The notes: generated from the sequence alone by a model not told the origin. Positions 30,629-48,741 are shown, counted from the first letter of the stretch. The stretch is DNA of 64,000 nt from a virus (IMGVR_UViG_3300033153_008361:1-64000); one strand, 5' to 3'. A program made the numbers and translations.

Positions 30629-30648
30629 TTCGCTACTCCTTCCTAATA

Positions 30649-30970: not shown

Positions 30971-31022
30971 GTAAAGGGCTGTTTTATATGGTCGTCACGC
31001 TTCGACCTATACTTTTGTTAAA

Positions 31023-31114
31023 GAATCGCCCTGGACAATAATTCTACTTATCCCTGATTGCTCATCAACGTGCGGGTCAATTCGCAATACCTTATATATG
31101 GTGCCAGGGCGATT
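31023..31114. promoter_or_regulatory. 11-bp inverted repeat pair flanking 70 nt
   Basis: AATCGCCCTGG (31023-33) pairs with CCAGGGCGATT (31104-14). It lies immediately downstream of the predicted leftward transcription start. Confidence 0.5.
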
Positions 31115-31123
31115 ACGCTTTCT

Positions 31124-31152
31124 ATAATATCAGATGTTATAGTGTTGGTCAA
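31124..31152 (-). promoter_or_regulatory. sigma70-like leftward promoter
   Basis: The minus strand reads TTGACC (31152-47), a 17-nt spacer, then TATTAT (31129-24). Confidence 0.5.
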
Positions 31153-31607
31153 GGGCAAAGCTGCACAGGCTTGAGCTATATGGCTCAGCTGGGGGGGCTT
31201 GGGATCTCGTCACCCATTTTAGGCTATCGAATCCGGCCGTTGAATCCTACCATGATCGATTATGATAACCTAGATTGTAATAATCGATCAGGCGGTCCGC
31301 CTGATGACAGGCAGAAGCAGCGGAGATCGAGCGGTCCGCCTGTCTCCCTGATGACACAGAAGCAGAAGCGGAGATCGCCTGAGCGGACCGCGGTTTTTTT
31401 CTGTTTGTTTTTTTCTGTCTGCTTAGATAATGTTTTTCTGTGTCTGTGTCGCTGTCTCCCTGTCTGCCTGATGAGACACAGAAGCGGACCGCCTGATCGG
31501 TCTGTGTGTGTGTTTGATGAGACAGAAGCGGACCGCCTGATCGGTCTGTGTGTCTCCCTGTGTGGCGATCTCTGTGTGTGTCTGCTTCTGTGTCCGCTTC
31601 TGTGTCT

Positions 31608-31631
31608 CCGCCTAATACAGGCGGGTTTTTT
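31608..31631 (+). terminator. terminator-like hairpin
   Basis: CCGCCT-aatac-AGGCGG is followed by GTTTTTT. Confidence 0.55.
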
Positions 31632-31747
31632 CTGTCTGTGTGTCGAGATCAGGCGGAGATCGGACCGCTCAGGCGATCTCTGCTTCTGTGTCGCATTCTA
31701 AGCGGAGACAGGCGGAGATCAGGCGGTCCGCTTTCTATATAGTACAG

Positions 31748-31772
31748 ACCGCCTATTTTTGTGGCGGTTTTT
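31748..31772 (+). terminator. terminator-like hairpin
   Basis: ACCGCC-tatttttgt-GGCGGT is followed by TTTT. It sits just upstream of the rightward promoter. Confidence 0.5.
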
Positions 31773-31786
31773 CCCTGTGATCTCAC

Positions 31787-31816
31787 TTGACAATAATTGA
31801 CATTATAGGTTATGAT
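31787..31816 (+). promoter_or_regulatory. sigma70-like rightward promoter
   Basis: TTGACA (31787-92), an 18-nt spacer, then TATGAT (31811-16). It is followed by the hairpin GGTCCGCGG-aaaaa-CCGCGGACC. Confidence 0.45.
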
Positions 31817-31882
31817 TTAGGTCCGCGGAAAAACCGCGGACCGCTCAGGCAGACACAAGAACACACAAGGAGTAAAGCGATA

Positions 31883-32356
31883 ATGACAGGCATTACAGAG
31901 AATACAGGAAAAACCGATCTAATTATTAGAGATCACAGACTCACAGAAGCGGACCGCCTGTATAAAAAATCATTCGATCTACACTTGAAAGCGGAGACAC
32001 AACTCGCACTATCTGAGATCATACGAGATCAGGCGGTCCGCTTAAAACTACAGGCGGAGAAAGCAGAAGCAGAAGCGGAGACAGGCGATCATTATATGGT
32101 TTTTCATTTTACTTGTGATCTAGTCATAGGGCACAATTTTACAGGGAGTGAAGTTATATTTTCCGCTATAGATGAGATCGAGATCATAAGACACACAGAA
32201 GCGGACCGCAAAAAATACGATCAATTAATTGTCCGCTTCTGCTTAGAAAAAAATCCGCTATTCCATATTGATACATTGTATTTTACTCTGAGCGATATAT
32301 CACATATTGACGATCACACAGGCGGACAATATAAACTCACAGAGATCACAATATAA
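31883..32356 (+). CDS. small TEADR-motif protein, paralog family member
   Basis: ATG 31883 follows AAGGAGTAAAGCGATA. The track start at 31787 is the promoter TTGACA. The protein has TEADRL, AEAEAE, DHYMVF and EIEI blocks shared with 32596-32913. Confidence 0.65.
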   Translation: MTGITENTGKTDLIIRDHRLTEADRLYKKSFDLHLKAETQLALSEIIRDQAVRLKLQAEKAEAEAETGDHYMVFHFTCDLVIGHNFTGSEVIFSAIDEIEIIRHTEADRKKYDQLIVRFCLEKNPLFHIDTLYFTLSDISHIDDHTGGQYKLTEITI

Positions 32357-32411
32357 CGGACCGCGGACCGCTCAGGCGGTCCGCCTGTACTTTACAAGGA
32401 GTAAAGCGATT
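32357..32411 (+). repeat. intercistronic hairpin-plus-RBS cassette, copy 1
   Basis: CGGACC-GCGGACCGC-TCAG-GCGGTCCGC-CTGTACTTTAC-AAGGAGTAAAGCGATT, then ATG. Confidence 0.85.
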
Positions 32412-32537
32412 ATGATCAAAGTATGGTTTTTTTGTGTTCTTGTTAGCATTCTGCTTTTGTACTACACAGAAGCGATCACAGCGGTTTTTTTTCTGATCGC
32501 TGTGGTTTTATATGAAACATGGAAGACGATCAATTAA
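32412..32537 (+). CDS. 41-aa membrane micropeptide
   Basis: The ATG follows the conserved cassette. The product is MIKVWFFCVLVSILLLYYTEAITAVFFLIAVVLYETWKTIN. Confidence 0.5.
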   Translation: MIKVWFFCVLVSILLLYYTEAITAVFFLIAVVLYETWKTIN

Positions 32538-32595
32538 TATCAGACCGCGGACCGCTCAGGCGGTCCGCCTGTACTTTACAAGGAGTAAAGCGATA
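32538..32595 (+). repeat. intercistronic hairpin-plus-RBS cassette, copy 2
   Basis: The stem is 32547-55/32560-68 (9 bp, perfect) with loop TCAG. CTGTACTTTACAAGGAGTAAAGCGATA follows. Confidence 0.85.
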
Positions 32596-32913
32596 ATGAA
32601 CGATCACATATTGACAGAAGCAGCGGAGACAGAAGCGGACCGCCTAAGCATAGAAGCGGAGATCAAGCGATCTCACACTCGACACAGAGAGACTCACCAC
32701 AGCGATCATTTTATGGTTTTTTCTGTCTGTGGTGATTTTACCCATTATGATCACCTGATCGCTTCTGTCTCCCTGATGGCAGACACAGAGATCGAGATCG
32801 ATTATATTGGCGAGCACACTATGATCGGTCTGATTATTTTGCCAAATGCTACAGAAGCGGAGATCACAGAAGCGGACCGCCTGTATAGTGAATTACAAGG
32901 AGTAAAGCGATAA
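32596..32913 (+). CDS. small TEADR-motif protein, paralog family member
   Basis: ATG 32596 (MNDHILTEAAETEADRL). DHFMVF and EIEI blocks are shared with 31883-32356. The ORF ends inside the next initiation motif (TAATG). Confidence 0.65.
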   Translation: MNDHILTEAAETEADRLSIEAEIKRSHTRHRETHHSDHFMVFSVCGDFTHYDHLIASVSLMADTEIEIDYIGEHTMIGLIILPNATEAEITEADRLYSELQGVKR

Positions 32914-33410
32914 TGACACACAACAATTGTGGTTTTAACAGACCACAGAGATCGAGCGGTCCGCGGTCCGCTTCTGTACTTTCTCCGCCTGAGTGTGAGA
33001 ACACATGGCGATCAGAGATAAAAAACCGCCACACATGCAAAGTAAAAAATACACAGGGAGACTCCGATCTCACTCTGATCTCTGACACACAGGAGATCGA
33101 TCACATTGGCGATTATTTAGGCATTAATCGCCTGAGTGAGGATTATGGTTGTCTGTTTGTCGAGATCGCTGATGGCGATTATGGTCATATATTGGGCTGT
33201 GAGTCTAATATTCCATACTTAGAAAAAATATTATATGACATAGATTATTATGAGGAAACATGGCGGTTTTTTCAGGAGATCGCAGAAAAACACAGCGAGA
33301 TCTATTGTCCTATGTGTGGCGGAGACTCCGCTCACTTGGGCACACTTGGCACACTTGATCATTATCGCTGTGTAATGTGTCATATGGAATTCTCACGATC
33401 TCAGGAGTAA
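32913..33410 (+). CDS. hypothetical protein with C-terminal zinc ribbon
   Basis: It follows the conserved initiation motif. It contains CPMCGG...HYRCVMC. Confidence 0.6.
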   Translation: MTHNNCGFNRPQRSSGPRSASVLSPPECENTWRSEIKNRHTCKVKNTQGDSDLTLISDTQEIDHIGDYLGINRLSEDYGCLFVEIADGDYGHILGCESNIPYLEKILYDIDYYEETWRFFQEIAEKHSEIYCPMCGGDSAHLGTLGTLDHYRCVMCHMEFSRSQE

Positions 33411-33420
33411 AGCGATAATA

Positions 33421-33476
33421 ACAGACCGCGGACCGCTCAGGCGGTCCGCCTACACTTTACAAGGAGTAAAGCGATA
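33421..33476 (+). repeat. intercistronic hairpin-plus-RBS cassette, copy 3
   Basis: It has the same unit with CTACACTTTAC. It is preceded at 33404 by a degenerate initiation motif lacking an ATG (GGAGTAAAGCGATAATA). Confidence 0.85.
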
Positions 33477-33791
33477 ATGAACGATCAAACAATAGCAGAG
33501 ATGGCATATACAGAAGCGGACCGCCTGAACACAGAAGCGGACCGCCTACAGGCAGAAGCGATCAAAATACAGGCAGAAGCGGACCGCCTGATCGAAAAAA
33601 TCACGAGCGGACCGCCTGATCTTGTGTATTACCAATACACAGGGAGATCGGATTTTTTCAATTATGAGAATTCGGGTGATCTCTGTTTTCACACTCCGCC
33701 ACAAGCGGAGAAAGCAGCGATCAATAATGGATTAATTACATGGCGAGTGATCATGGTCTGTGAGTATGTTGTCAAGACAGGGAAAGTATAA
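33477..33791 (+). CDS. small TEADR-motif protein, paralog family member
   Basis: MNDQTIAEMAYTEADRLNTEADRLQAEAIKIQAEADRL... Confidence 0.65.
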   Translation: MNDQTIAEMAYTEADRLNTEADRLQAEAIKIQAEADRLIEKITSGPPDLVYYQYTGRSDFFNYENSGDLCFHTPPQAEKAAINNGLITWRVIMVCEYVVKTGKV

Positions 33792-33792
33792 A

Positions 33793-34458
33793 ATGAACGA
33801 TCTAATACTGGCAGAAGCGGAAAAAAAGAAAGCAGAAGCGGACCGCCACAGAAAAACCGCGGACCGCCTGATCGCAGAAGCGGACCGCCTGTCAAACGTA
33901 TTTTATCTTAGAGATGAGATCGCAGAGAAAGCGGACCGCCTACAGGCAGAAGCGGACCGCCTGATCGCTTTCGCTGATCGCCTGATGGCAGAAGCGGAGA
34001 AAGCAGAAGCGGACCGCCTGATCGATAAAATCAGAAGCGGAGAAAAAATCAGAACATGGAAACATAAAACCGGCCTGTTTTTTATCGATCAGGAGATCAC
34101 AGAGATCGAGATCGAATTATGGCAGACAGGCAGAAGCAGAAGCGGAGACAGAGATCGCCTGTCTTATGTTTTAAGTGAGAATAGTGTGCCTGTATTTTAT
34201 GGTTTATCTGATCTAGGAATTCCGCCACACATGGCAATAGATAGCGATCTCTCTGTGTGTGCCTGTCTGTTTTTTCTCGCACTCAGGCAGGGAGACACAG
34301 ACAGTGATTATTTTGAAAACTACACAGACACACAATTACAATGGATACACTCACAGACCGCCACAGAGATCAGGGAGATCGTGAGCATATGTGAGGAAAA
34401 TGATCTCACACTCGATCAGGCGATCTCTGTTATGTTAGCATGGGAAACAGAAAAATAA
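33793..34458 (+). CDS. ADRL-repeat coiled-coil protein, paralog family member
   Basis: ATG 33793 (MNDLILAEAEKKKAEADRH). Seven ADR(L/H) repeats are present. It has a GGGAAAG RBS. Confidence 0.65.
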   Translation: MNDLILAEAEKKKAEADRHRKTADRLIAEADRLSNVFYLRDEIAEKADRLQAEADRLIAFADRLMAEAEKAEADRLIDKIRSGEKIRTWKHKTGLFFIDQEITEIEIELWQTGRSRSGDRDRLSYVLSENSVPVFYGLSDLGIPPHMAIDSDLSVCACLFFLALRQGDTDSDYFENYTDTQLQWIHSQTATEIREIVSICEENDLTLDQAISVMLAWETEK

Positions 34459-34516
34459 TATCAGACCGCGGACCGCTCAGGCGGTCCGCCTGTACTTTAC
34501 AAGGAGTAAAGCGATT
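34459..34516 (+). repeat. intercistronic hairpin-plus-RBS cassette, copy 4
   Basis: It is identical in core to copy 2. Confidence 0.85.
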
Positions 34517-34969
34517 ATGATCAGTTTAGAAGCAGCAAAAAATCTCACACATGGCGAGATCATTTATCACATAAGTCATAGGAATGCCGATCAGACTCCG
34601 CAGAGATGGCGCATTAATGGCAAAGTGAAAACATGGAGAACCAGACCACAGGAGATCAGTATACCTATAAAACACGGTTTATATGATTATGGTTATTTAA
34701 CACACAATGATCTTGATCTTGTGTGTCTGTCAGAAGCAGAAGCGGAGATCGTGACGAACTCAGGCACAGAGATCGGACATTATGATTATTTATATCGAAA
34801 CATAAAACACAGAGATTATATTTATGGCTGTGTGTTACCACAGGCGGACCGCCTACAGAGATCGATCATTGTAGGCGGAGATCGGACAATTGATGATCAG
34901 GGAGTGACAACAATTACAGGCGGAATCACCTATTATTTTCCTATAGGTGAGGAATCCGGCCTAAATTGA
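34517..34969 (+). CDS. hypothetical protein
   Basis: ORF track. It follows the conserved cassette. Confidence 0.6.
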   Translation: MISLEAAKNLTHGEIIYHISHRNADQTPQRWRINGKVKTWRTRPQEISIPIKHGLYDYGYLTHNDLDLVCLSEAEAEIVTNSGTEIGHYDYLYRNIKHRDYIYGCVLPQADRLQRSIIVGGDRTIDDQGVTTITGGITYYFPIGEESGLN

Positions 34970-34998
34970 CAGAAAAACCACAAACAGACCACAAACAG

Positions 34999-35036
34999 AC
35001 CACAGAGATCGATCAGGTGATCTCTGTGGTTTTTTC
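34999..35036 (+). terminator. rho-independent terminator
   Basis: ACCACAGAGATC-gatcaggt-GATCTCTGTGGT is followed by TTTTT. Confidence 0.8.
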
Positions 35037-35560
35037 TGTGTGTAGACCACAGAAGCAGCGGAGATCGGACCGCCTGAGCGGTCCGCCTGTCTGCCTGTCT
35101 GCTTCTGCGGTCTGTGTGCCTGTCTCCCTGTCACTTTGATCGAGATCGGACCGCTCAGGCGGTTTTTTTCCGATCAGGCGGTCCGCCTGTCTGCCTGTCT
35201 GCTTCTGCTTCTGTGGTCTGTGTCATCAGGCAGAAGCAGAAGCAGAGATCGCCTGAGCGGACAATACAGGCGATCTCTGTGTCTGCCTGTCTGCTTCTGC
35301 CTGTCTCCGCTGCTTCTGCTTCTGCTTCTGCGGTCTGTGTGTCTGTCTCCCTGTCACTTTGATCGAGATCGGACCGCTCAGGCGGAGATCGATCAGGCGG
35401 TCCGCCTGTCTGCTTCTGTTATCCCAGGACACAGACCGCCACAGAGATCAGGCGGACCGCGGACCGCTCAGGCGGAGATCGATCAGGCGGTCCGCCTGTC
35501 TTCCCAGCTGGGATCGGCCGACTGGCAGAAGCAGCGGAGATCAGGCGATCATGGTTCATT
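35037..35560. repeat. word-repeat island B (ORF-free)
   Basis: It uses the same vocabulary. A 62-bp direct repeat (35101-35162 and 35324-35385) has one mismatch. A long imperfect palindrome lies at 35224-35300. Confidence 0.85.
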
Positions 35561-35691
35561 CACACGCGCAAAAATGATCGGTGAGCAGAATTTTATAATG
35601 TTTTCGGCCGGGTCTTTTTGGTTTTTCTGGTTTTTTTTATTGGTTTACGGCCGGGTTTTTCCGGCGCGATTACACACAAGGAGTAAAGTAT

Positions 35692-36063
35692 ATGATCACA
35701 GCTATAGTTATGGGCGCATATGGTAAAAAAGATGAGTACAGAGTGGATCGACTTGCTAACCGTGGCGAGTGGTTCGGTAAAACTTGGTTCGTTGGGATCG
35801 GTTGCGGGTTCGATATACACCGCGTAGTAGTAGAAGCGGACAATGAGTCAGAGGTGATCGACGCCTTGACGGATTCGGCCGCTGGTCACTTGATAAAAGT
35901 TGATGAGGAATGCCCCCATCAAGATCCTGATCAATGGGATCAATGTAATTGCACATTTGCCGGTAATTTTTCTGATCGCGTCGATCTGGATGACATTCGA
36001 ATTCTGAAGCGTTGCAAAGTAAAATATTTTGAACCGGCCGATCGTTGGTTGGATATTAGCTAA
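35692..36063 (+). CDS. hypothetical protein
   Basis: ORF track. It has an AAGGAGTAAAGTAT start region. Confidence 0.6.
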   Translation: MITAIVMGAYGKKDEYRVDRLANRGEWFGKTWFVGIGCGFDIHRVVVEADNESEVIDALTDSAAGHLIKVDEECPHQDPDQWDQCNCTFAGNFSDRVDLDDIRILKRCKVKYFEPADRWLDIS

Positions 36064-36420
36064 ACAGACAGACACAGACCACAGGATCAGACAGGATCGG
36101 CCGGTTTTCGGCCGGTCCTGAGTGTGATCGCGTCTCTGTATGGTTTTACCTGTCTGCCTGTCTGCCTGTCTGCCTGAGCGGAGATCGGACCGCTTGATCG
36201 GTCTGCTTCTGCTTCTGTGTCTCCGCTTGTGCCTGTCTGCCTGTGTTCTCATTGGGCGGACCGCTCAGGCGATCTCTGTGTGTGTGTCCGCCTGTCTGCC
36301 TGTGTCCTCATCAGGCGGACCGCTCAGGCGATCTCTGTGTCTCCCTGTCTGCCTGTCTGCTTCTGTGTGTCTGCCTGTGTCCTCATCAGGCGGAGATCGG
36401 CCGGTTCTACCACAGGTAAA
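36064..36420. repeat. word-repeat island C (ORF-free)
   Basis: It has CTGTCTGCCTGTCTGCC runs. GCGGACCGCTCAGGCGATCTCTGTGT occurs twice, near 36256 and 36315. Confidence 0.85.
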
Positions 36421-36532
36421 ACGCGCCGGCGCGGAAAGTCTGAACGGCCGTTCGATCCTTGCCGGCCAACGGTCCGCGGCGAGTGTGGTCGAGCGGGCAG
36501 CGGGCGGACCGTGGGCGGGGGCGCTTCTACTA

Positions 36533-36640
36533 TATACACGCGGGATCGACATAGGCGAGCAGAATTTACACGCGCTAAGGGGTTCGGCCGCCTTAAAAAA
36601 TACACGCGGCCGGGGAGGTGCGAGCAGAATTTACACGCGG
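36533..36640. promoter_or_regulatory. tandem ~65-bp unit carrying a 20-bp perfect direct repeat (operator or iteron candidate)
   Basis: GCGAGCAGAATTTACACGCG occurs at 36555-74 and 36620-39. ATACACGCGG occurs at 36534 and 36600. A related copy (CACACGCGC...GAGCAGAATTT) lies at 35563-35594. Confidence 0.6.
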
Positions 36641-36697
36641 ATCGAAGGGGGGCGGGCTGGAGTTGGCAGCAAATCGGGCGGATCGGTTCTCATTTAC

Positions 36698-36725
36698 TTG
36701 ACAAGCAATTATAAGGTGTTATTAT
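36698..36725 (+). promoter_or_regulatory. sigma70-like promoter
   Basis: TTGACA (36698-703), a 16-nt spacer, then TATTAT (36720-25). Confidence 0.5.
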
Positions 36726-36781
36726 CTATCTATCCGACGCGGGCCGCGGGCGGTCCGCCTTAGTAATAAGGAGCAAGCGAA

Positions 36782-37549
36782 ATGATAAATGATCAGAATT
36801 TAGAGATCGGGCAATTGGTAAAGGTTAGCAGATCGCTCACCGTGGGCGATCTATATGGGGCGGGACATTCTCAGGCGGGGGAAGTGGTGATCGTGGCGGG
36901 GGAAGTCGGCCGGGTTATATCGCCTGTCATTGCAGAGGCGCGGGACGGGTCGAAGTTGGATCGGCCGTGGGTTGTGGTTCGCTTTTTCTTCACTTTGCCG
37001 GATCACTACCGGCGCGATCCAACCTGTGAACCGGTCCACAATATAAAGATCGGGCGGCTGGAAGCGGTGACAGAGGCGGAAGCGGTGATCCTGATTATGA
37101 TCGGGCGCTATGGTAAACCGTGGGCCAATACGAGACAGGATCGGGCGGCTATGGCCTCATATATGGATCAGCGGCCGTTATATGACGATCCCGGCGTTTT
37201 GGGTAACTGGAGATCAGCGGCTTCTATCTTGTCAGAAGTGGCGGAGCGGGTGAGCCTTGCTGCTTGGGGGGTTCATCCGGCCGGGGAGACGGATCTCACC
37301 GTATACATGGAAGCGGGCGATCCGGGTGAGCGGGTCAATTGTGAGGGGTTCGTTGTGGACGGGGACGGGGGGATCGTCTTTGATACTGTAGGCGGCGGGC
37401 CGTATCTCTGCGAAAGTTGCAACAAATCGATCCGGTTCTTGACATGCTCAGGGCGGGCGATCTGTGAGGCATGTCTGGACGCGGAGATCGCAGAGGCGGA
37501 AGCGGTGACAGGGGCGGGCTATATTACGCCTAATGAGGCGATCATATAA
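36782..37549 (+). CDS. hypothetical protein
   Basis: ORF track. It has an AAGGAGCAAGCGAA start region. The C-terminus contains CESC...CEAC. Confidence 0.65.
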   Translation: MINDQNLEIGQLVKVSRSLTVGDLYGAGHSQAGEVVIVAGEVGRVISPVIAEARDGSKLDRPWVVVRFFFTLPDHYRRDPTCEPVHNIKIGRLEAVTEAEAVILIMIGRYGKPWANTRQDRAAMASYMDQRPLYDDPGVLGNWRSAASILSEVAERVSLAAWGVHPAGETDLTVYMEAGDPGERVNCEGFVVDGDGGIVFDTVGGGPYLCESCNKSIRFLTCSGRAICEACLDAEIAEAEAVTGAGYITPNEAII

Positions 37550-37914
37550 TGGCTATACGAAACGGTATAAAGTGGGGTAACGGGCGGATCTGGCAAATGA
37601 TCGGGAAAGCAGCAAGGGAAGCGGAGCGGGCCGAGCAGATCGAGCGGGTGAAAGCAGAGACGGCCGCGGGGGGTTTTCCGCTGTGCCTCTGTGACATATG
37701 CCTATATTATGAAAACGATCCCGCGGACCGGGCCAAGTGGCGGATCATTATGCACAGGCGGCGATCACAACTGATCGCGCTTAGCCGTCACTATCTGCGA
37801 AACTTTCACGGCTTCACAGCGGCGGAGTGTGATCAGTTCGGTCCTGAGTGTGATCGGGTCATTCTGGCACATAATGACGCGGCGATCCGTTGTGGCGGTG
37901 ATCCTATTGTATAA
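37549..37914 (+). CDS. hypothetical protein
   Basis: ORF track. It has a TAATG junction. Confidence 0.6.
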   Translation: MAIRNGIKWGNGRIWQMIGKAAREAERAEQIERVKAETAAGGFPLCLCDICLYYENDPADRAKWRIIMHRRRSQLIALSRHYLRNFHGFTAAECDQFGPECDRVILAHNDAAIRCGGDPIV

Positions 37915-37961
37915 CCAACGCGGGCCGGGTTCGGCTTGCCTTAGCTAAGGAGTAAAGCGAA

Positions 37962-40900
37962 ATGATACAGATCCACGATAAACAGACAGAAGCGAACGCG
38001 GGCCAAGCGGAACGGGCGACACTTTACCACCGATCCGGGCTTGGCCTTGGTTATAACAAGCGGGAAGTAAAGCGGATCGAATGGGCGCGGGGTCAATATG
38101 CCCAATATGATCAGGCGGTCCGGCTACGCTGGAGAGAACCCCGGCAACGCAAAGATCGCCAAACATGGCTCACTTATAAGCCGGACGCGGTGATCGTGGC
38201 GGGCTGGAATAACCCCGATCCGCCGTCCTCATATAACACAACTAAGGACAAAGACGGAACGATCCAACGCGGGAAATATACCAGTTTCGATCCCCGCTTT
38301 ACTTCCGATTTTCGGTCATGGCTTGCGGACGCGGGCCTCACGGTGATCGCGGACTTTCACAAGGCGGAGACAGGCGATCAGGGGTCGATCTCCCTTACAG
38401 AGATCGCGGAGCGGGGGCGGGCTGAGCGAGAAGCAGAAGCGGAGAAAGCAACGCGGATCGCGTCTGTTATAACGGAAGCAGAACCGGCCGAACTGGAAGC
38501 AGAGACGGAAGCGGGCGATCTTGGGGCTTATGATACGGCGGATAATTGGATCAATCGTTGGGGTGACTTCTACAAAGACACACAACAACACAACGCGGAA
38601 GCGGCCAAACTGGAAACAGAACCCGATCCCCTTGCTGATTATTCTAACGGGGATCTACTTGGTGATTATTTGGATCTGTGTCCTCATTATGATCAATCTG
38701 ATGAGGATATAACGGAGATCAGGACCGTACTCACGGCGCGGGGCTTCTTATTTGTGGCTCAGGCGGACGGGGGCGGGCCAACAGAGGCGGAAGTCAAAAC
38801 CACGGCGGATCGGCTCATCAGGGAAGCAAAAACGGCGGACCGGGCCAACGGACGCGGGCCGGGGTTCGATATATGGACTAAGGCACAAGCAGCGGCCAAA
38901 GCAGAAGCGGCGGAAGCTGAGCAACACGCGGAGACAGAACCCGCGGACCGGGTAAAGATTGAACCGGCCGACGCGGATCGCTTTGAATATATCGAACCCG
39001 AACCCGATCCAGTTATGCCAGCGGGCGCGGCGGAGTCAATCACAGGTAAAGAAGTTGGAAAAATGATCCGGCCACGGTTGCGGGCTATCTTTCCCGGCGT
39101 CACGTTCTATGTAAGGACTGATCATAGTTCACTTGATATAAGCTGGATCGACGGGCCAACGGGGGCGGAAGTCAAAAAGATCGCGGGCCAATATGACGGC
39201 GGCGGCTTCGATGGCATGATCGATCTTGGTTATTGTATTTATCATTGGTTAATGCCAGATGGATCGACGCGGATCGCCTATTCCAGCGGTACAGCGGGAT
39301 CGGGGGGTTCTGTGTCCGCGTTTGGCGGTGACGGGTCAAAGCCTGATCCGGGGGCGCGGTTGGTTAGCTTCCACACGGAATATATAAACTGTAAACGGGC
39401 GCATTCGGCCGACTTCTTAAAGCGGGCGGGGGAGCAAATCAGCGGTGAGTATAATTGGCCTGTGCCAAAGATTGAAGCTAGTACAACATGGATCTCACAC
39501 TCCAAAACTATTGACGGCGCGTCATTTGTCCATGATCCGATCAACGCTCCAGCCCCCGCGGATCATTTTCGGGCGGGCGGGTCGCCTTATGTCCGATCTT
39601 TGGGCGGGGTTTTCGATCACGCGGCTCACGATATAAGCTATTATGAACCGCCAAAAGCAAAGCCGAAAGCTAAGCGGGCCGCGGGCGGGGCTTCTGTCGA
39701 TTATGATCCCGCGGAAGCGGTGATCACCTATAGTGAGCGGAACGGCGCGATCTGGACATGGATCGAAACGGTAAAACCCCCGGCCGATGTGAGGGACGGG
39801 CTAACGGGGATCGGCTTCTTTTGGTGGCGGAAGCGGGGCAAATGGGCCGCCAAGCAAGAGATCGCAGAGGACACGATCCGCGCTATACTGGAAGGGGGAT
39901 CGGGCGCTCAGGGAGACGGGGACGGGGGCGGAGAAGCTGATCCGCCGTCCTCATCCCCAAGCAAGCCAAAGACTAAGGCCGAACCGGGGACAGAACCCGA
40001 TCAAGCTAAGGCGGAGAAGCTGATCGCCTTGGCGGACTCCTTCGACAAACAGATCCAAAAGAAGCGGGACACGTTCAAAGGGGCTAACCTCACTCACAGG
40101 CGGGCGGAGTTCATAGCGTCCGCAAACTATGACGCGGATCGAATGCAAGAAGCACAAATGATCCTGATCGCCTTGGCGGACCTGTGGACAGTTGGAAGCG
40201 TCCCGGCGCAATTTAGGAAAATGGGAACTAAAAAAACGGCGCTGGAGTTGACTCACAATATCCGGGCGCGGGCTAAGTATGGGGATAAGTACCCATCAGA
40301 CTATAATGATCGTGTTTGGGGGTCATGGGGCGATTATAACGCGGCTCACGCATGGGCGGACCGGGTGATCTCAGGGGTCGATAACACTGAGCGAGACGCG
40401 GAGCGAAAGATCGCCGGGCTGGAGCAAAACGCCAAATTTGCCAAGATCCGCGGGTTTTTCCCCACTCCGCGGGCCGTGGCGGATCTTATGCTGGAGCATG
40501 TGAACCTCACAGAGGGGGATCTTGTTTTAGAACCCTCAGCGGGATCGGGCGCTCTATGCGATATGATCGCGGAATACTTCCCACGCGCCACGCTTCACGC
40601 GGTCGAAGTGTCTCACATGCTCAGGGAGATCCTCACCTTAAAGGGGCACGAGTTGATCGGCCGGGACATTTACGATCTCGATCCTGTGGATAGCATCGGA
40701 AAATATGACGCGATCATAATGAATCCCCCATTTGAAAAAATGCAAGACGCCGATCACGTTCGCTTTTGTTATGCGATGTTAAAAAGCGGCGGAACGCTAG
40801 TGAGCGTTATGTCCCCGTCACCCTTCCACAATTCCACTCACGCGGCGGCGGATTTCCGATCATGGTTCGATACATTTGGCGGTGAGAAGTTCGATCTCCC

Positions 40901-40967
40901 CGTTGGCAGCTTCAAAAAGTCCGGGACGGGCGTAAGTTCTTGTTTTATTGTCATCAGCAAAGATTAG
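37962..40967 (+). CDS. large polyvalent-type protein with C-terminal gamma-class N6-adenine DNA methyltransferase domain
   Basis: The C-terminus has motif I (LEPSAGSGAL) followed by motif IV (IIMNPPF). The upstream 800 aa contain Ala/Glu-rich linkers and unassigned globular modules, for example FYVRTDHSSLDISWIDGP and GIGFFWWRKRGKW. Confidence 0.75.
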   Translation: MIQIHDKQTEANAGQAERATLYHRSGLGLGYNKREVKRIEWARGQYAQYDQAVRLRWREPRQRKDRQTWLTYKPDAVIVAGWNNPDPPSSYNTTKDKDGTIQRGKYTSFDPRFTSDFRSWLADAGLTVIADFHKAETGDQGSISLTEIAERGRAEREAEAEKATRIASVITEAEPAELEAETEAGDLGAYDTADNWINRWGDFYKDTQQHNAEAAKLETEPDPLADYSNGDLLGDYLDLCPHYDQSDEDITEIRTVLTARGFLFVAQADGGGPTEAEVKTTADRLIREAKTADRANGRGPGFDIWTKAQAAAKAEAAEAEQHAETEPADRVKIEPADADRFEYIEPEPDPVMPAGAAESITGKEVGKMIRPRLRAIFPGVTFYVRTDHSSLDISWIDGPTGAEVKKIAGQYDGGGFDGMIDLGYCIYHWLMPDGSTRIAYSSGTAGSGGSVSAFGGDGSKPDPGARLVSFHTEYINCKRAHSADFLKRAGEQISGEYNWPVPKIEASTTWISHSKTIDGASFVHDPINAPAPADHFRAGGSPYVRSLGGVFDHAAHDISYYEPPKAKPKAKRAAGGASVDYDPAEAVITYSERNGAIWTWIETVKPPADVRDGLTGIGFFWWRKRGKWAAKQEIAEDTIRAILEGGSGAQGDGDGGGEADPPSSSPSKPKTKAEPGTEPDQAKAEKLIALADSFDKQIQKKRDTFKGANLTHRRAEFIASANYDADRMQEAQMILIALADLWTVGSVPAQFRKMGTKKTALELTHNIRARAKYGDKYPSDYNDRVWGSWGDYNAAHAWADRVISGVDNTERDAERKIAGLEQNAKFAKIRGFFPTPRAVADLMLEHVNLTEGDLVLEPSAGSGALCDMIAEYFPRATLHAVEVSHMLREILTLKGHELIGRDIYDLDPVDSIGKYDAIIMNPPFEKMQDADHVRFCYAMLKSGGTLVSVMSPSPFHNSTHAAADFRSWFDTFGGEKFDLPVGSFKKSGTGVSSCFIVISKD

Positions 40968-40994
40968 GGCCGGGAACGGTCAAAGGATCGTATT

Positions 40995-41195
40995 ATGTAC
41001 TATGTATTTTCCTACTATACCAAAAGATACAACGCCAAAGGGGAGATCGTGACCGAGTACGCGCCACGGCTACACACGATCAAAAAGAATATTGAGACGG
41101 AAGCGGAAGCACAACAGGCGGTGAGGGATTATGACGCCACTCACAAACGCGGGCCGCTCGGCCGGGTTGCTGGATATGATGACCAAAGACGCTAA
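40995..41195 (+). CDS. hypothetical protein
   Basis: ORF track. It has an AAAGGA RBS. Confidence 0.5.
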   Translation: MYYVFSYYTKRYNAKGEIVTEYAPRLHTIKKNIETEAEAQQAVRDYDATHKRGPLGRVAGYDDQRR

Positions 41196-41208
41196 AGGAG
41201 ATCAACCA

Positions 41209-41622
41209 ATGAACGATCAAGAAAAAATACACGCGGACACGGAACACGCGCCAGAAGTCGATCCGGGCTTCTCGGGGCTTCACACGCGGGAAACGTGGGA
41301 GCAAATCTCACAGGCGCTATTCAAGATTGAACAGACGGCCGTAACGCTCCAGCGCCAAGCTAAGCGGGCGCAATACTACGCGGGCGCGGCTAGTTCGCTT
41401 CTTTTCTTGCTGGAGCAAGAACCCGAAACGCTAGAAAAAATGCTTGATTCTTTGGGGCTTCACATGGATGAGCACGATCAGCGGATCGATCTCCTTACAA
41501 GCAGTACGGCGGACTCTGATCAATGGGCCGTAGCATCGGCCGAAACTCTGATCGCGTTACATGAACTCAATCAACTTTGGGGTACATTAGATCCTTTAGT
41601 ACAAGAGTTAGGTATTAACTAA
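41209..41622 (+). CDS. hypothetical protein (MND N-terminus like the 32.6-34.5 kb paralogs)
   Basis: ATG 41209 follows AAAGGAG. It starts ATGAACGATCA, as do three upstream paralogs. Confidence 0.55.
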   Translation: MNDQEKIHADTEHAPEVDPGFSGLHTRETWEQISQALFKIEQTAVTLQRQAKRAQYYAGAASSLLFLLEQEPETLEKMLDSLGLHMDEHDQRIDLLTSSTADSDQWAVASAETLIALHELNQLWGTLDPLVQELGIN

Positions 41623-41672
41623 ATAAACACGCGCTAGAGCGATCCAGCGCCTTAAAATAAGGAGTAAGCGAA

Positions 41673-42350
41673 ATGAGTCACAATGTATTTATGACAGAGG
41701 ACGTTAACACATTCAGCACATTAATGTATCAATACGGCCACGGATCGAGCGGGCGCGGGCCTTGGCGGGTGATTGGCGGTGACGATCTCCGTTCTGAGGG
41801 GATCAAATTTGACGCCACTCCGCGCCACTGGTACATAACTAACACGCTCACAGGCGTTTCTAAGCGGATCGGACCGTCCACAGGCCGGGGCACTAATTAC
41901 TTTGATCGGGCGCGGTTATTGGCCGAGCAACGTAACCAAGACCACTGGAGCAAGAACCCGCCAACGCTGAACACACCTGATGAGATCGCGGACCTGTGGA
42001 TCGAGCGGGATCGGATCGTCCTGGAGTTTAACGGATCTGATAAGGTTGGGATCAGGGTACGCGGTTTTAATGCTGTGATCAATGCCTATTTTGAGAAGCT
42101 ACCCGGCCGGGGTTGGGTCGAAATTGGCGGACCGTTCCAAGGTTTTAACCGGGTACTTGGGCCGGGGTTCAATTGGTCCTCAGAGGGGCTACAGGTACAG
42201 ATCCGCGGCGGCCAATGGAAGCATAACAAGATCCAACCGGGCGAAATTAAGCGGCTGGAAGGGCTGATCGCGGGTTGGCTGGAGTCTCAACACCTACGCG
42301 ATCTGGAAGTCAAGGTAACACGCACTAGGGGCGGGGAGCGTCTGTACTAA
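41673..42350 (+). CDS. hypothetical protein
   Basis: ORF track. It has the conserved initiation motif. Confidence 0.6.
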   Translation: MSHNVFMTEDVNTFSTLMYQYGHGSSGRGPWRVIGGDDLRSEGIKFDATPRHWYITNTLTGVSKRIGPSTGRGTNYFDRARLLAEQRNQDHWSKNPPTLNTPDEIADLWIERDRIVLEFNGSDKVGIRVRGFNAVINAYFEKLPGRGWVEIGGPFQGFNRVLGPGFNWSSEGLQVQIRGGQWKHNKIQPGEIKRLEGLIAGWLESQHLRDLEVKVTRTRGGERLY

Positions 42351-42562
42351 TGGACAAAAACGCGCTCACGATCACAATAAACGGCCGTAATTGGCGGGGG
42401 TCACGCTTTGTAGATGAGGTTGATCTCGCCGTCCTGGAAAAAATGATCGCCATGTACCTGGAGCACAAACAGTACGCGATCTTTGAAACACGCCAAGCGC
42501 CGGATCATATTGTTTATGATTATACGGTCACGGTAACGCGCTCCAGCGGGGGATCGGCTTAA
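42350..42562 (+). CDS. hypothetical protein
   Basis: ORF track. It has a TAATG junction. Confidence 0.5.
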   Translation: MDKNALTITINGRNWRGSRFVDEVDLAVLEKMIAMYLEHKQYAIFETRQAPDHIVYDYTVTVTRSSGGSA

Positions 42563-42843
42563 TGTTCACTTTTGAGACTGATTGTACCTGTAGTACGGCG
42601 CGGTGGATCAACAATATGGTTGATCAGGCGCGTGAGGTTACTTATGAGACGCTAGTACGCCGGGTAGGGGTCGATCAATTGGCCTCTGTGTTTCCCTTCT
42701 ACGAGTGGGGGCGCGGGACGCGGGCGGGCCTCAGAATGAAAGATGACTATATGATCAGCTACTATCGGAGCAAATACCGCGGGCGGACCTGCTACTATGT
42801 TTGTCATTCATCTATTGAATATATTTTCACTGAGTCCGGCTAA
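42562..42843 (+). CDS. hypothetical protein
   Basis: ORF track. It has a TAATG junction. Confidence 0.5.
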   Translation: MFTFETDCTCSTARWINNMVDQAREVTYETLVRRVGVDQLASVFPFYEWGRGTRAGLRMKDDYMISYYRSKYRGRTCYYVCHSSIEYIFTESG

Positions 42844-42863
42844 GGCCGGGAAGGAAAAGCGAA

Positions 42864-43547
42864 ATGATAAAAGTAAACGCATCAGATATTAAAGTTAATT
42901 TGCTCCTGGATGATTGTCCCGATCTGTCATGGTTGGGGACGTTTGGAACTAAGCCGGAAACGGATCAGGCGATCAAGCACAACGGCGGGCGTAATACGCT
43001 CCCTTGGTTCAATCCTGGTAACGCGGGTGAGGATTATGAGGACGAATATTGCCAGCAAGATTATGAGCGGATCATGGGCTATGAAAATGGGGATTGGTAT
43101 ATGATGGGCGTCCGGGCCAAGATCACGCTCACGCTCCCTGAGTTCAAGGAAAACGCTTTACAACGGCTCGGCCGTCGGTTGGGCCTGTTAAAACGGGTTC
43201 ACAAGTCCTGGAGTCTACACGAATTCAATACGCCGGGGCTATGGGGGGTCGAATCTGACTCTGATTATTTCCTGGAAGTCTGGATTGAAGAGGTTTACTC
43301 ACTCGTTGCCCAACTCAGGCAGCTAAACATTAAGGTTAAGAATGATCACGCGGGCTTCTTAACGGTTGATCCCCCCTTCGATAGTGAGTCTGTTATCACC
43401 CTCAGTGATAGGCAACGGGCGGACCTGGATCGGGCGCTGGCCGCCGGTCCGTTTTGGGCGAAGCGTTTCGGGCGCTGGATCGTTCGGTTATTAGATAGTC
43501 GATACGCCAAAACTCAGGCGGAGATCGCAGTATTTAACGCGGCTTAG
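42864..43547 (+). CDS. hypothetical protein
   Basis: ORF track. It has a GGAAGGAAAAGCGAA start region. Confidence 0.6.
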   Translation: MIKVNASDIKVNLLLDDCPDLSWLGTFGTKPETDQAIKHNGGRNTLPWFNPGNAGEDYEDEYCQQDYERIMGYENGDWYMMGVRAKITLTLPEFKENALQRLGRRLGLLKRVHKSWSLHEFNTPGLWGVESDSDYFLEVWIEEVYSLVAQLRQLNIKVKNDHAGFLTVDPPFDSESVITLSDRQRADLDRALAAGPFWAKRFGRWIVRLLDSRYAKTQAEIAVFNAA

Positions 43548-43611
43548 GGCGTTTGGGGTATCACAGGTTATATCGGGCCACTTAGGGCCGTAAGGCCAAA
43601 GGATAAGCGAA

Positions 43612-44139
43612 ATGAAAGATACTAACGAGATCACAATAAAGAATCATAAACATGGAAAAACCTATTTTGGGAAGCGTAACGCGGCCATTATCACGAACCC
43701 GATAGGGGCAACATTTACAAGCGTCCGCTTCTATGAAAGTGAGGCCGATCTACAGGCCGGGGATCTGGCCTTGTCTTTTCGCAGGGACTTCCGAAACTGG
43801 ACGAAAATAAGCGGCCGGAAGCAAGCCGAGATCGCGGCCACTATTTGGGCCAATATGACGCGGGGTGTAACCGTTTGGGATAACGGCGGAGCAACGGCCG
43901 ATCGTTACCGGGTCATTATTAATACCTCTGTGTACTATATGAGCAAACGCGCCAACCAACCAAACGGGGTGTGCATGTATTCGGGCGAAACATTCAACAA
44001 CCATGAAAACACAGGAGATCCAAAGAAGCGGATCGCGCTCGGGGATCTTCCGCTCGGGGTTGCATCGCAGATCGGATACCTCATCTATGCTGAGCATGAA
44101 CACCTAGAATACTTAAAGGAGATCGGCCATGTTCAATAA
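43612..44139 (+). CDS. hypothetical protein
   Basis: ORF track. It has an AAAGGATAAGCGAA start region. Confidence 0.6.
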   Translation: MKDTNEITIKNHKHGKTYFGKRNAAIITNPIGATFTSVRFYESEADLQAGDLALSFRRDFRNWTKISGRKQAEIAATIWANMTRGVTVWDNGGATADRYRVIINTSVYYMSKRANQPNGVCMYSGETFNNHENTGDPKKRIALGDLPLGVASQIGYLIYAEHEHLEYLKEIGHVQ

Positions 44140-44971
44140 AAAACTGATCGTCAATGGAAATTTGGAGATCGCAGAGTCAGGAGGGGGCTTCACTCCCTGC
44201 TTGATCATGGTTGGGCCTAAACCGCTCGACACGCTGATCGCTGAGCATGTAGGAATCAAGAAGTCCGGCCGGGAACACGCGCTCCAGGATAACGCCAACC
44301 ATTATTTGGGGCATGTTCAGATCACTATTGAACCGGTCTATATCGTTTGCCCTGGGTGTGGTGATTCTAACCTGAATTATGATCATAATGACGATATACG
44401 CGGGCGCTTCTTGTATGATTGCTTGGCCTGTGGTATCAGCTTCGATGAGGACGGCGCAAAGAATACGCGCTGGCTCACCGTGGCGGACGTTCAGGACCGT
44501 TGTAATTTTATCTCTATGACTAATAAGCCCCTTCTCCGTTTTTGGGCGCAGTATTTAGAGATGAATGTTGGGGTCAAGTTTGGAAACGGGGGGATCTATA
44601 GCCGTTGGGATCTGGATCTAGGGGGCTACGCGGAAATTTACCTCACAGAATCAGACGCGCCACGCGCCAGGGATAGGGTTTTTCCTTATTTAATCGTGGT
44701 TGATCGAACCGATCAGAATGATGAACCTGTACCGGCCGATCTCGTTATCATGCCTACCCATGATAAGCTGGACGTGGGGGACTTTCTTAACCTGCTCTTT
44801 TTTGTCCCCTGGTATGAGTGTGAGGGAGTGCTGCTAGTCTCAGGCGCGGAGATCAACAACGTGACAACACTCCAACCGGCCGACGCGGGGATCGATATTG
44901 TGGCAAGTCAGATATTTAAGATAGATGAGTCCCTGAAAAACTTCGATAATCATGGTGGGTTCAGCATTTAA
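44129..44971 (+). CDS. hypothetical protein
   Basis: ORF track. It has an AAGGAG RBS and an internal CPGCG...CLAC pair. Confidence 0.6.
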   Translation: MFNKKLIVNGNLEIAESGGGFTPCLIMVGPKPLDTLIAEHVGIKKSGREHALQDNANHYLGHVQITIEPVYIVCPGCGDSNLNYDHNDDIRGRFLYDCLACGISFDEDGAKNTRWLTVADVQDRCNFISMTNKPLLRFWAQYLEMNVGVKFGNGGIYSRWDLDLGGYAEIYLTESDAPRARDRVFPYLIVVDRTDQNDEPVPADLVIMPTHDKLDVGDFLNLLFFVPWYECEGVLLVSGAEINNVTTLQPADAGIDIVASQIFKIDESLKNFDNHGGFSI

Positions 44972-44987
44972 TAAGGAGTAAAGCGAA

Positions 44988-45317
44988 ATGAAGAAAAACA
45001 AATCATTCAAATGGAAAGTTACGCTTCTGACAGACTCGGGCAACTTCAAAGGATCTCCCTTCTCTAGTAGCCGATTTGACGCGGAAGGGTTCAGGATCGG
45101 GGACATAATCGTAACGCAAATCAAGGCCGACGCGGTAACAATCGGGCGGAACTATGTCCAACGAAAACCGCCCTATGATAAGCGTAAGGCTATCATCCAA
45201 CGCCGTTGGGGAGCGATCAAGCCGTCTCAGGTTCTTTATTCCCAAGGCATGATAATCGAAAAGAATCAGGCTCACCATATCGATCCGGCTTCGCCAACCG
45301 GCTATAGCGTTATATAA
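44988..45317 (+). CDS. hypothetical protein
   Basis: ORF track. It has the conserved initiation motif. Confidence 0.55.
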   Translation: MKKNKSFKWKVTLLTDSGNFKGSPFSSSRFDAEGFRIGDIIVTQIKADAVTIGRNYVQRKPPYDKRKAIIQRRWGAIKPSQVLYSQGMIIEKNQAHHIDPASPTGYSVI

Positions 45318-45334
45318 CGCAAAGGAGATCAATT

Positions 45335-46213
45335 ATGTCACATATGGAAGCACAAGCAGACCTCGGAAATTGGATCGAGTTTGAAGATCCCTTAGAAGGG
45401 CGGCGGGTTGTTGAAGCTGAGTGGGAAGACGATCAGGACATAGTAACCGGGCCGGTAACTGATAAATGGGTCAATGTTTGGTTTTCCCGGCTTAGTGCTC
45501 CAGGTTATTTGGACTGTACTGCTTGGGAAGGGCCATATCACACTGAGGAAGGGGCGCTCTATGGCCTGTATGAAAGTCTCGGAAGCGATGATAGTGAGAC
45601 TTACTTCTCATTCATCGGGGATGATAAGTGGATTATCCAGGGTTCGCTAAGGGTCACAGGCCGGGAAAACCACTTATACGGCCGTCCCCTTGGCGAAAAA
45701 CCCCCGGTTGAAATTTGGTTAGCACAACTCGGAGATATTGACCTGGATGAGGAAACGGGCGAAACATTCCCCTATGATCCTAATGAGGACCATGATCTCC
45801 CCGAAGCGTATGAGTTCAGGCTGATCGATCCAAAGTCCAAGCGGGACATAAGGACCAAACGTTGGGGCTATCTGTCAGAAGCAGCGGCCGAACTCCTGGA
45901 TCGGCTGGAGTGCGCCAAGCGGGACTCAGAATGGTTCGTGAGTGTTGAGGTGTTCATCGGCTGGACCGATTATACCTGGACCACGCGCTACTCCGAGCAA
46001 CCGGCCGAAATCTCAGATAATGAGCGAACGGATCGGGCCATAGCCGAGATTTTACACGCGCTAGAACCCGATCCCAACGCGCCAACGCTTCCTATGGACT
46101 TACCCACCGTGGCGTTTACTGGCATCTATCATATGGGTATTGAAGAATTCGAGTGGTCTGAAATTGACACTCCTGGATATTATTCACGACAAGGAGATCA
46201 GAATGAAAAATGA
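45335..46213 (+). CDS. hypothetical protein
   Basis: ORF track. It has an AAAGGAG RBS. Confidence 0.6.
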   Translation: MSHMEAQADLGNWIEFEDPLEGRRVVEAEWEDDQDIVTGPVTDKWVNVWFSRLSAPGYLDCTAWEGPYHTEEGALYGLYESLGSDDSETYFSFIGDDKWIIQGSLRVTGRENHLYGRPLGEKPPVEIWLAQLGDIDLDEETGETFPYDPNEDHDLPEAYEFRLIDPKSKRDIRTKRWGYLSEAAAELLDRLECAKRDSEWFVSVEVFIGWTDYTWTTRYSEQPAEISDNERTDRAIAEILHALEPDPNAPTLPMDLPTVAFTGIYHMGIEEFEWSEIDTPGYYSRQGDQNEK

Positions 46214-46808: not shown

Positions 46809-46814
46809 AAAGAT

Positions 46815-46841
46815 AAGCCCCGGCTGATAAGACCGGGGCTT
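46815..46841 (+). terminator. terminator-like hairpin
   Basis: AAGCCCCGG-ctgataaga-CCGGGGCTT. The T tract is weak. Confidence 0.5.
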
Positions 46842-46868
46842 GGCATACCCCTTGCGGAGTAAAGCGAA

Positions 46869-47424: not shown

Positions 47425-47435
47425 AGGAGTTTGCC

Positions 47436-47642: not shown

Positions 47643-47650
47643 AACCCGTG

Positions 47651-47678: not shown

Positions 47679-47721
47679 ATTTTTCACCGGCTGAGATACG
47701 GTCGGTAAAGGAGTAAACGAA

Positions 47722-48726: not shown

Positions 48727-48741
48727 TAAGGAGTAAAGCAA

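Follow-up and report, generated by a model that had tools for sequence, protein, structure and literature searches.

The 64,000-nt stretch IMGVR_UViG_3300033153_008361:1-64000 (the window) is part of the genome of an uncultured, temperate tailed phage assembled out of several Joint Genome Institute (JGI) metagenome samples, and at about 31200-46000 it carries a domain in which the tetranucleotide palindrome GATC is strongly over-represented. The two arms of the window diverge out of non-coding DNA at 30.7-31.2 kb, where the GC skew flips sign. Minus-strand genes occupy the left arm (from ~31 kb leftwards), including the gene for the terminase large subunit (TerL) and a weak major-capsid match. 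The right arm is encoded on the plus strand from 31.2 kb rightwards and contains small ORFan genes, the gene for a 1001-amino-acid polyvalent protein and then more ORFans; further on lie a tyrosine integrase gene at 48.7 kb and a replication module that includes the gene for a DnaB-like helicase, along with two additional methyltransferase-type genes. The GATC-rich part of the right arm is referred to here as module B (sub-modules B1, B2 and B3), between the structural module (A) and the replication module (C). Its GATC enrichment is real, results from pressure on the DNA itself that works by way of codon pairs and amino-acid content, is polar from 31.2 kb, and is conserved in a diverged relative. 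The principal features are:

31203-46200: core GATC-rich domain, ~21 sites per kb, 323 sites, median spacing 37 bp
46201-50500: decaying tail of the GATC gradient, about 8-10 sites per kb
31151-36780, plus strand: sub-module B1, restricted-vocabulary DNA with small open reading frames (ORFs) and three non-coding repeat arrays
37962-40967, plus strand: gene for the 1001-amino-acid polyvalent protein, with LPD29 and a C-terminal NPPF methyltransferase domain

Within 31001-46000, GATC occurs 320 times (21.3 per kb); base composition predicts 58 sites, and Markov models of first and second order predict 95 and 173. No other of the 256 tetramers is as over-represented in this region. GATC stands at 5.6 times the level expected from base composition, and the ratio of observed to expected counts (O/E) is 4.4-6.8 across the sub-modules of the domain. 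The flanking DNA contains 146 sites in 1-31000 (4.7 per kb) and 52 in 51001-64000 (4.0 per kb), with 45 sites (9.0 per kb) in 46001-51000. The onset is sharp, as the first GATC of the domain, at 31203, is preceded by a 616-bp gap, and the densest 5 kb has 25.2 sites per kb. Non-coding DNA inside the domain is likewise enriched (17.6 per kb). Spacing between sites is slightly more even than random (coefficient of variation, CV, 0.85), and no extended motif, helical phasing or clustering of GATC was found in the domain. Words one mismatch away from GATC are depleted to about the same degree in all six classes, which fits selection on the word and not a single mutation pathway. A first-pass annotation of this DNA, made by hand counting in 600-bp samples, had already described an enrichment specific to the 31-46 kb module, and the full counts agree with it; its sample counts of 16, 8 and 6 are exact, and the sample at 57001-57600 contains two sites, not three.

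The excess survives nulls that preserve the encoded proteins. Genes of module B contain 269 GATC sites. Shuffling synonymous codons inside each gene leaves 155±7 (z 15.6), and 118±8.5 are expected if the module B proteins are written with codons at the frequencies that the other modules use. The polyvalent gene by itself has 71 sites, compared with 38±4 after synonymous shuffling. Under the same null, the structural genes have 85 sites with 88 expected, and the mild enrichment that had been reported for them vanishes; the replication genes, previously described as not enriched, are indeed at null (27 sites, 25 expected). In the tail at 46201-50500 there are 45 sites, compared with 36±4 after shuffling (z 2.2).

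Inside module B genes the sites arise from particular codon pairs, as had been noticed at first pass: GAT-C and nnG-ATC junctions predominate, and nGA-TCn accounts for only 20 of the 269. Isoleucine in module B is encoded by ATC in 87% of cases following a G-ending codon and in 26% otherwise (odds ratio, OR, 18.8, p 2e-26), and aspartate is encoded by GAT in 82% of cases ahead of a C-starting codon and in 54% otherwise (OR 4.0, p 9e-8). Both junction effects are absent in other modules; the isoleucine effect persists in the tail at 46201-50500 (OR 4.9). Expressed as saturation, 71-90% of Asp-[LPHQR] dipeptides in module B are encoded as GAT-C, compared with 42% in the structural module, and 49-70% of x-Ile junctions are encoded as nnG-ATC, compared with 16%, with the highest values (90% and 70%) in B2 and B3. 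Furthermore, the Asp-[LPHQR] dipeptides are themselves 2-3 times more frequent in module B proteins. The GATC excess therefore has three layers: amino-acid content, codon choice and codon-pair context. The suggestion that selection acts at the DNA level is upheld by the codon and amino-acid nulls, by context-dependent codons, by the enrichment in non-coding DNA and by sites conserved between orthologues.

Several words specific to 36780-46200 are skewed towards the plus strand relative to their reverse complements (CGGGC 66:0, GGGCC 30:0, GCGGG 70:6, ACGCG 52:5), and GAAGCGG is skewed towards the plus strand across 30-42 kb. We leave these skewed words as a codon dialect of module B, unlike the rest of the genome. 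A Chi-like role for GAAGCGG or CGGGC was set aside, as their orientation does not match an end at 31.2 kb.

A search of 5.8 billion proteins identified one homologue of the polyvalent protein, with 49% identity. Its DNA is represented by L005 and L016, which are the same phage and come from marine-sediment and other metagenomes, an environment different from that of the window; along with a metagenome scan, this gives one independent relative in total. The relative has a bounded GATC-rich domain, with about 15-20 sites per kb over about 5.5 kb and then about 7 per kb, and the isoleucine junction effect is found inside this domain (OR 10.2, p 1e-4) and absent outside it. In the orthologous polyvalent genes, 24 GATC positions are identically aligned, compared with 7.1±2.0 expected from independent synonymous shuffles of both genes (500 runs, maximum 13). 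Gene sharing between the relative and the window is limited to the polyvalent gene and its small downstream neighbour, and the GATC-rich domain of L016 also spans two genes without a homologue in the window. Ahead of it lies a restricted-vocabulary repeat array with a sigma-70-type promoter, as in the window. The extreme palindrome avoidance, CGGWCCG words and CCWGG-free zone of the window, described below, are missing from L016, in which there are 102 CCWGG and 20 GGATCC sites and TCGA has an O/E of 1.4-1.5. Because L016 keeps a GATC domain over unrelated genes and without extreme avoidance, the enrichment is, on these comparisons, a conserved property of the genomic domain, and not a quirk of one gene family or a side effect of a restricted vocabulary. 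Two more module B proteins and one encoded beside the boundary were also used to scan viral contigs, and none of the three gave a relative; none of 50,697 phage records is a close DNA relative of the window. As a separate observation on L016, CCGG is elevated at 500-6000, with 59 copies in 5.5 kb against 56 in the 9.5 kb that follow, and TGCA is lower by a factor of three.

Most other short palindromes are avoided. Of the 64 hexamer palindromes, 34 are present at most once in the window, compared with about 15 expected, and the 4-mers ACGT, CTAG, TGCA, GTAC and AGCT have O/E values of 0.3-0.6 genome-wide. Depletion of 4-mer palindromes other than GATC is about twice as strong in module B as elsewhere, and it is strongest where the GATC enrichment is strongest. 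The first-pass annotation had missed this genome-wide avoidance, the nested polar zones in which it is organized, and the second and third hyper-abundant palindromes that accompany it (CGGCCG and CGGWCCG). The zones have a common start at 31.1-31.2 kb and differing rightward extents:

31105-42019: CCWGG-free zone, 1 site in 10.9 kb compared with about 4 per kb on either side, ending ~1 kb beyond the end of the polyvalent gene
31236-35515: zone almost without CCGG, GGCC and CGGCCG, with two CCGG and two GGCC in 4.3 kb, all of them enriched elsewhere

CCWGG is the Dcm/EcoRII-type site, and its zone looks as if protection from a CCWGG-specific activity started once the polyvalent methyltransferase gene had been expressed or had entered the cell. 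CGGCCG occurs 144 times in the window, about nine times the expected number, and exceeds codon shuffles (z 7-13) in every module except for the first 4 kb of module B. It is also abundant in the TerL relative L003 (37 in 17.7 kb) and in L016 (25 in 15.5 kb), is likewise noted for L002, and represents a second, genome-wide palindrome resembling the highly iterated palindromes (HIPs). ACCGGT and GCCGGC are the only other hexamers with GGCC or CCGG that are tolerated; AGGCCT, TGGCCA, CCCGGG and TCCGGA have been purged. CGGWCCG has 50 copies at 31293-36751 (5.6 kb), compared with about 0.2 per kb elsewhere. It is the core of the 15-bp palindrome CAGGCGGWCCGCCTG and sits both in intergenic hairpins and in ORFs; there its translation gives the recurring peptide (T/A)EADRL.

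The hexamers that contain GATC are themselves treated very unevenly. With expected counts taken from flanking-base frequencies, TGATCA is found 44 times (41.5 expected), GGATCC 8 times (25.8), CGATCG 4 times (50.5) and AGATCT once (25.3). Of the 22 ATCGAT sites, 21 overlap GATC (p 4e-7), and TCGA without such an overlap is as depleted in module B as other palindromes (O/E 0.37-0.58). Cutting by BclI, and ClaI- and TaqI-type cutting at overlapping sites, is blocked by N6-methyladenine in GATC (G-m6A-TC); BamHI, BglII and PvuI are insensitive to it. The retention of TGATCA, the purging of GGATCC, AGATCT and CGATCG, and the confinement of ATCGAT to GATC overlaps thus suggest that the GATC sites carry N6-methyladenine when the DNA meets restriction enzymes.

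Three methyltransferase-type genes are found in the genome, the number given in the first-pass annotation. Besides the polyvalent gene, these are:

56802-58511, plus strand: candidate DNA methyltransferase, with weak matches only, classed as beta-class N6/N4
58678-60192, plus strand: beta-class N6/N4 DNA methyltransferase (PF01555), MboIIA/CcrM-like

No specificity, for GATC or any other site, could be assigned to the three proteins from NCBIfam or PDB sequence matches. In the polyvalent protein, Pfam identifies LPD29 (PF18847) at 49.3 bits (cut-off 27) and an MTS methyltransferase domain (PF05175) at 28.4 bits (cut-off 23). Its LPD29 domain, above the gathering score and fused to an unrelated activity, places it in the LPD29 class, and the same architecture is present in P0001. 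The methyltransferase core is METTL5-like, with no recognisable target-recognition domain. For polyvalent proteins of this kind, a role at the very start of invasion has been predicted (PMC5512222), and those containing LPD29 are predicted to be early anti-defence factors (PMC5512222, PMC13551039).

At the start of module B, B1 has a low sequence complexity of about 600 distinct 6-mers per kb, compared with about 845 elsewhere, with a gradient along the sequence. Its vocabulary is dominated by CAGAAG, CGGAGATC, GCGGWCCGC and CTGTCTGC, and the peptide ADRL (GCG GAC CGC CTG; DNA word GCGGACCGCCTG) occurs in frame in several unrelated ORFs. The regulatory features of this part of the arm are:

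31787-31816, plus strand: near-consensus sigma-70-type promoter into B1, TTGACA-18-TATGAT, 11/12, by consensus match only
36698-36725, plus strand: near-consensus sigma-70-type promoter into B2 and the polyvalent gene, TTGACA-16-TGnTATTAT, 11/12, with an extended -10
32360-32417, plus strand: repeated intergenic cassette, a hairpin with a 9-bp stem (GCGGACCGC-tcag-GCGGTCCGC) followed by ACAAGGAGTAAAGCGATAATG, which holds a Shine-Dalgarno sequence and a start codon

The 587 bp that precede the main promoter hold 13 GATC sites. The cassette is present in at least six copies, each ahead of a small ORF (31833-31888, 32360-32417, 32544-32601, 32895-32918, 33425-33482 and 34465-34522), and it resembles the mobile regulatory cassettes found in the hyperplastic early regions of T4-type phages. 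An exact search of IMG/VR for the 22-nt hairpin word gave no match, and Pfam, PHROGs and NCBIfam returned nothing usable for the module B ORFans. Very low-complexity arrays of non-coding DNA, in many cases poor in A on one strand, are found at 31200-31790, 34970-35690 and 36060-36780, with the words CTGTCTGCCTG, CTGCTTCTG and GCTCAGGCGG, and are positioned upstream of both sigma-70-type promoters. An analogous array is seen at 1-300 of L016 before its promoter, with units of about 110 bp containing GGCTCAGG, and the core GCTCAGG is common to both phages. These non-coding arrays may be operator or regulatory arrays.

From its promoters, the LPD29 protein, the stronger depletion of palindromes, the nested zones and the complexity gradient, we infer that module B is the early, anti-defence and most restriction-exposed arm of the phage, functionally a ‘leading region’. 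Like such regions, it combines restriction-site avoidance stronger than in the rest of the genome with a predicted early anti-defence gene and two host-type promoters matching at 11 of 12 positions. Judging by L016, palindromes in leading domains may be sorted into an over-used set and a purged set, with different members in different phages.

Other parts of the window give some context for the domain. The stretch between the arms at 30645-31000 is GC-rich and non-coding, with no ORF, and has a long inverted repeat CCCCCATATGT...ACATATGGGGGG at about 30648-30716; it has no match in Rfam and could be a bidirectional terminator or a structured element of another kind. Rfam and tRNA scans of the whole window were empty. 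At 1-3180, minus-strand coding DNA contains large imperfect tandem repeats with periods of 33, 99, 117 and 315 nt (GC ~0.6, ~225 distinct 6-mers per kb), and looks like a gene for a repetitive structural, fibre-like protein. The gene at 11229-13424, previously annotated as portal, has no PHROG match. One further gene lies within the decaying GATC tail:

48742-49689: tyrosine integrase gene

Past the right end of the window there are further minus-strand genes, including those for an M23 peptidase and a 1404-amino-acid protein. Relatives of TerL, with 38-44% identity, are found mostly in contigs of metagenome-assembled genomes (MAGs) of Desulfobacterota. Among the TerL relatives in MAGs and IMG/VR, no equivalent of module B was reached and none had 15 or more GATC per kb.

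Local GATC excess with a function that depends on methylation state is known from oriC of Escherichia coli, with SeqA, and from the Dam promoters of phage P1. These Dam/SeqA-type elements consist of a handful of sites in tens to hundreds of bp, whereas the window has ~320 sites over 15 kb, mostly coding; in place of a short focal cluster there is an array with a CV of 0.85 and a median spacing of 37 bp. Three Dam sites are annotated at each of the cre and kilA promoters of P1, and nothing in the window resembles these small clusters; the suggestion of P1-like control made in the first-pass annotation belongs to this class. In the portion of P1 that was measured, its first 50 kb, there are 4.1 GATC per kb with a maximum of 7 per kb in any 5 kb, and darB, at 5.2 per kb, is not enriched, unlike the polyvalent gene of the window. 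A methyltransferase domain, as found in polyvalent proteins of the P1 DarB type, is also present in the window protein, which has neither a helicase partner nor LPD36.

The nearest analogue in kind is HIP1 (GCGATCGC) of cyanobacteria, a hyper-abundant palindrome that contains a methylation site, occurs in coding and non-coding DNA, and has conserved sites and cognate methyltransferases (PMC4390886, PMC5861425). Like it, GATC in the domain shows a many-fold excess in both coding and non-coding DNA, beyond codon nulls, and sites conserved between orthologues, in this case on one orthologue pair; the genome-wide spread of a HIP is missing for GATC, which is at null in modules A and C. HIP1 is an 8-mer found genome-wide at about 1 per kb in cellular genomes, whereas here a bare 4-mer reaches about 21 per kb in one polar phage domain. 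A HIP1 or cyanobacterial signature in the window was rejected, as there are no copies of GCGATCGC and CGATCG is purged. For the position of the domain, there are precedents in T5/BF23 and Autographiviridae, in which abstract-level descriptions indicate that the early-entering region sets restriction sensitivity (PMC12455610, PMC10644984). As in module B, the first-step-transfer DNA of T5/BF23, the early region of Autographiviridae and the leading regions of plasmids have a promoter-proximal anti-defence block purged of restriction sites; the titles and abstracts on these systems describe site avoidance only, and module B adds positive enrichment of a palindrome. Literature searches found no positive palindrome enrichment in an early or leading region, and no paper describing GATC enrichment at the scale of a domain in a phage came up in full-text searches.

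Our preferred reading, which we hold tentatively and with somewhat less than even confidence, is that the GATC array works in cis as a signal that depends on density and has been under positive selection: a carpet of Dam-type sites on the promoter-proximal early arm, which would mark that arm by its methylation state. Under this proposal, the infecting genome would be fully methylated over the array by an enzyme of the host or by one of the three phage methyltransferases, and would therefore resist restriction at GATC and at sites overlapping it and be open to transcription. Copies fresh from replication would carry the methylation on one strand or on neither across this stretch. A binder sensitive to methylation could then distinguish them and, for instance, turn off their early and anti-defence genes.

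Several points weigh against this proposal. The Dam-type link made in the first-pass annotation gains from the tolerated palindromes as far as adenine methylation is concerned, although that evidence is indirect; the enzymes to go with it are not apparent. No Dam-family methyltransferase (PF02086) and no SeqA-, MutH-, DpnI- or Vsr-like protein is detectable in the window; for the module B ORFans there was no SeqA-, MutH- or DpnI-like match even at E<=1, in searches by sequence, which could overlook relatives at the level of fold. Outside module B, the overlap of ATCGAT with GATC (5 of 6, p 0.06) involves few sites. The array covers 15 kb of gene bodies, and regulation usually needs sites at promoters. 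Methylated GATC blocks only those restriction sites that overlap it, so that any protective benefit of density is hypothetical. That module B enters the cell first is deduced solely from gene order, promoters and avoidance zones. The TerL relatives give a loose hint of a Desulfobacterota host, a group in which Dam/SeqA biology is not established, and conservation is seen in a single independent relative.

Other explanations account for parts of the same data. A HIP-like drive, in which methyltransferase-linked biased mismatch repair or gene conversion keeps creating the palindrome, as has been proposed for HIP1 of cyanobacteria, and density has no function of its own, is unlikely. It would be in keeping with several hyper-abundant palindromes (CGGCCG at nine-fold excess, CGGWCCG with 50 copies in B1, and GATC) beside several methyltransferases, and the Elhai model ties HIPs to cognate methyltransferases (PMC4390886). 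However, such a drive should act genome-wide, and GATC is at null in modules A and C; the six one-mismatch classes are depleted evenly with no single directional class; and site conservation between orthologues exceeds a protein-conditioned null, the same argument that Xu et al. used for selection on HIP1 (PMC5861425). The equilibrium density in the Elhai model is also about 1 site per kb, compared with 21 here (PMC4390886). It is distinctly unlikely that GATC is a passive ‘safe word’. On that account the purged early arm would have collapsed onto a few tolerated words, among which GATC, safe in its methylated form, would be over-used by default and would spread further by duplication of safe units. 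The virtual absence of 34 of 64 hexamer palindromes, the low complexity of B1 (about 600 compared with 845 6-mers per kb), the many B1 sites embedded in longer words that recur, CGGAGATCG and GCGGACCGCCTGATCG among them, and the coincidence of the strongest depletion of other 4-mer palindromes with the GATC peak would all be expected under this account. Yet B2 and B3, with unique coding genes and no repeats, have the top saturation (90% and 70%) and context-specific codons, the alternatives GAC-C and ATT or ATA create no forbidden palindromes, and L016 has a GATC-rich domain despite lacking extreme avoidance.

Selection on density, with no extended motif or phasing, and the position of the array on the early-acting arm are both compatible with a decoy, in which early and later multi-copy DNA titrates a host GATC binder such as Dam, a SeqA-like protein, MutH or a GATC-specific defence nuclease. 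We nevertheless consider this very unlikely: a genome-wide spread would work equally well or better, the polar gradient is unexplained, no candidate host factor is known, and any site left unmethylated would be fatal to a phage whose array was aimed at a GATC nuclease. A different evolutionary origin, raised in the first-pass annotation, would have module B come from a lineage that is GATC-rich genome-wide and still be un-equilibrated, and this is highly improbable. The module does have its own codon dialect (CGGGC 66:0, GCGGG 70:6, ACGCG 52:5), and its GC content (0.43-0.57) and CCWGG profile differ. Against this, the enrichment is a smooth gradient off a fixed boundary and not a block, codon choice depends on junction context and not on a general codon bias, and L016, which shares only two genes with the window, nonetheless has a bounded GATC domain that spans non-homologous genes and ends within the same contig. 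Among the relatives and MAG contigs that were retrieved, none exceeds an O/E of 2.4, and we know of no genome with about 21 GATC per kb. Finally, a signal at the RNA level, with GAUC in early transcripts cut by an endoribonuclease that shuts off early messages, can be modelled on RegB of T4, which cuts GGAG. The enrichment does track a co-directional early transcription unit and falls with distance, but the word is palindromic (as are 16 of 256 tetramers), which fits a dimeric DNA-binding protein; there are 13 sites in 587 bp upstream of the main promoter; the hexamer-context rules follow the logic of DNA restriction; and searches of the module B ORFans found no RNase candidate. This is the least probable of the accounts, and we regard it as extremely unlikely.

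Phage genomics treats short palindromes as words to be avoided, and in module B one of them is near saturation where the others are purged most. The trait costs altered protein sequences and has been kept between proteins that have diverged by 50%. Should the array prove to be a device for protection or timing that depends on methylation, it would represent a new anti-defence or regulatory principle, and it would provide a sequence-only way of spotting leading regions and of working out which sites in phage DNA are methylated. It would also offer a tractable recoding system in which to study the function of hyper-abundant methylated palindromes such as HIP1. A broader, more speculative proposal, which at present seems rather unlikely to us, is that some phages encode an epigenetic ‘coat’: a domain-scale, near-saturating array of methylation sites on the first-acting arm, in which density and not position would be functional, a hyper-methylated state would protect the DNA or time its expression, and the nested zones free of restriction sites would record the order of DNA exposure and of the onset of anti-defence functions. 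If this is true, such coats would constitute a new class of genome-scale viral cis signal, and the order of entry and the specificity of the methylase could be read from sequence.

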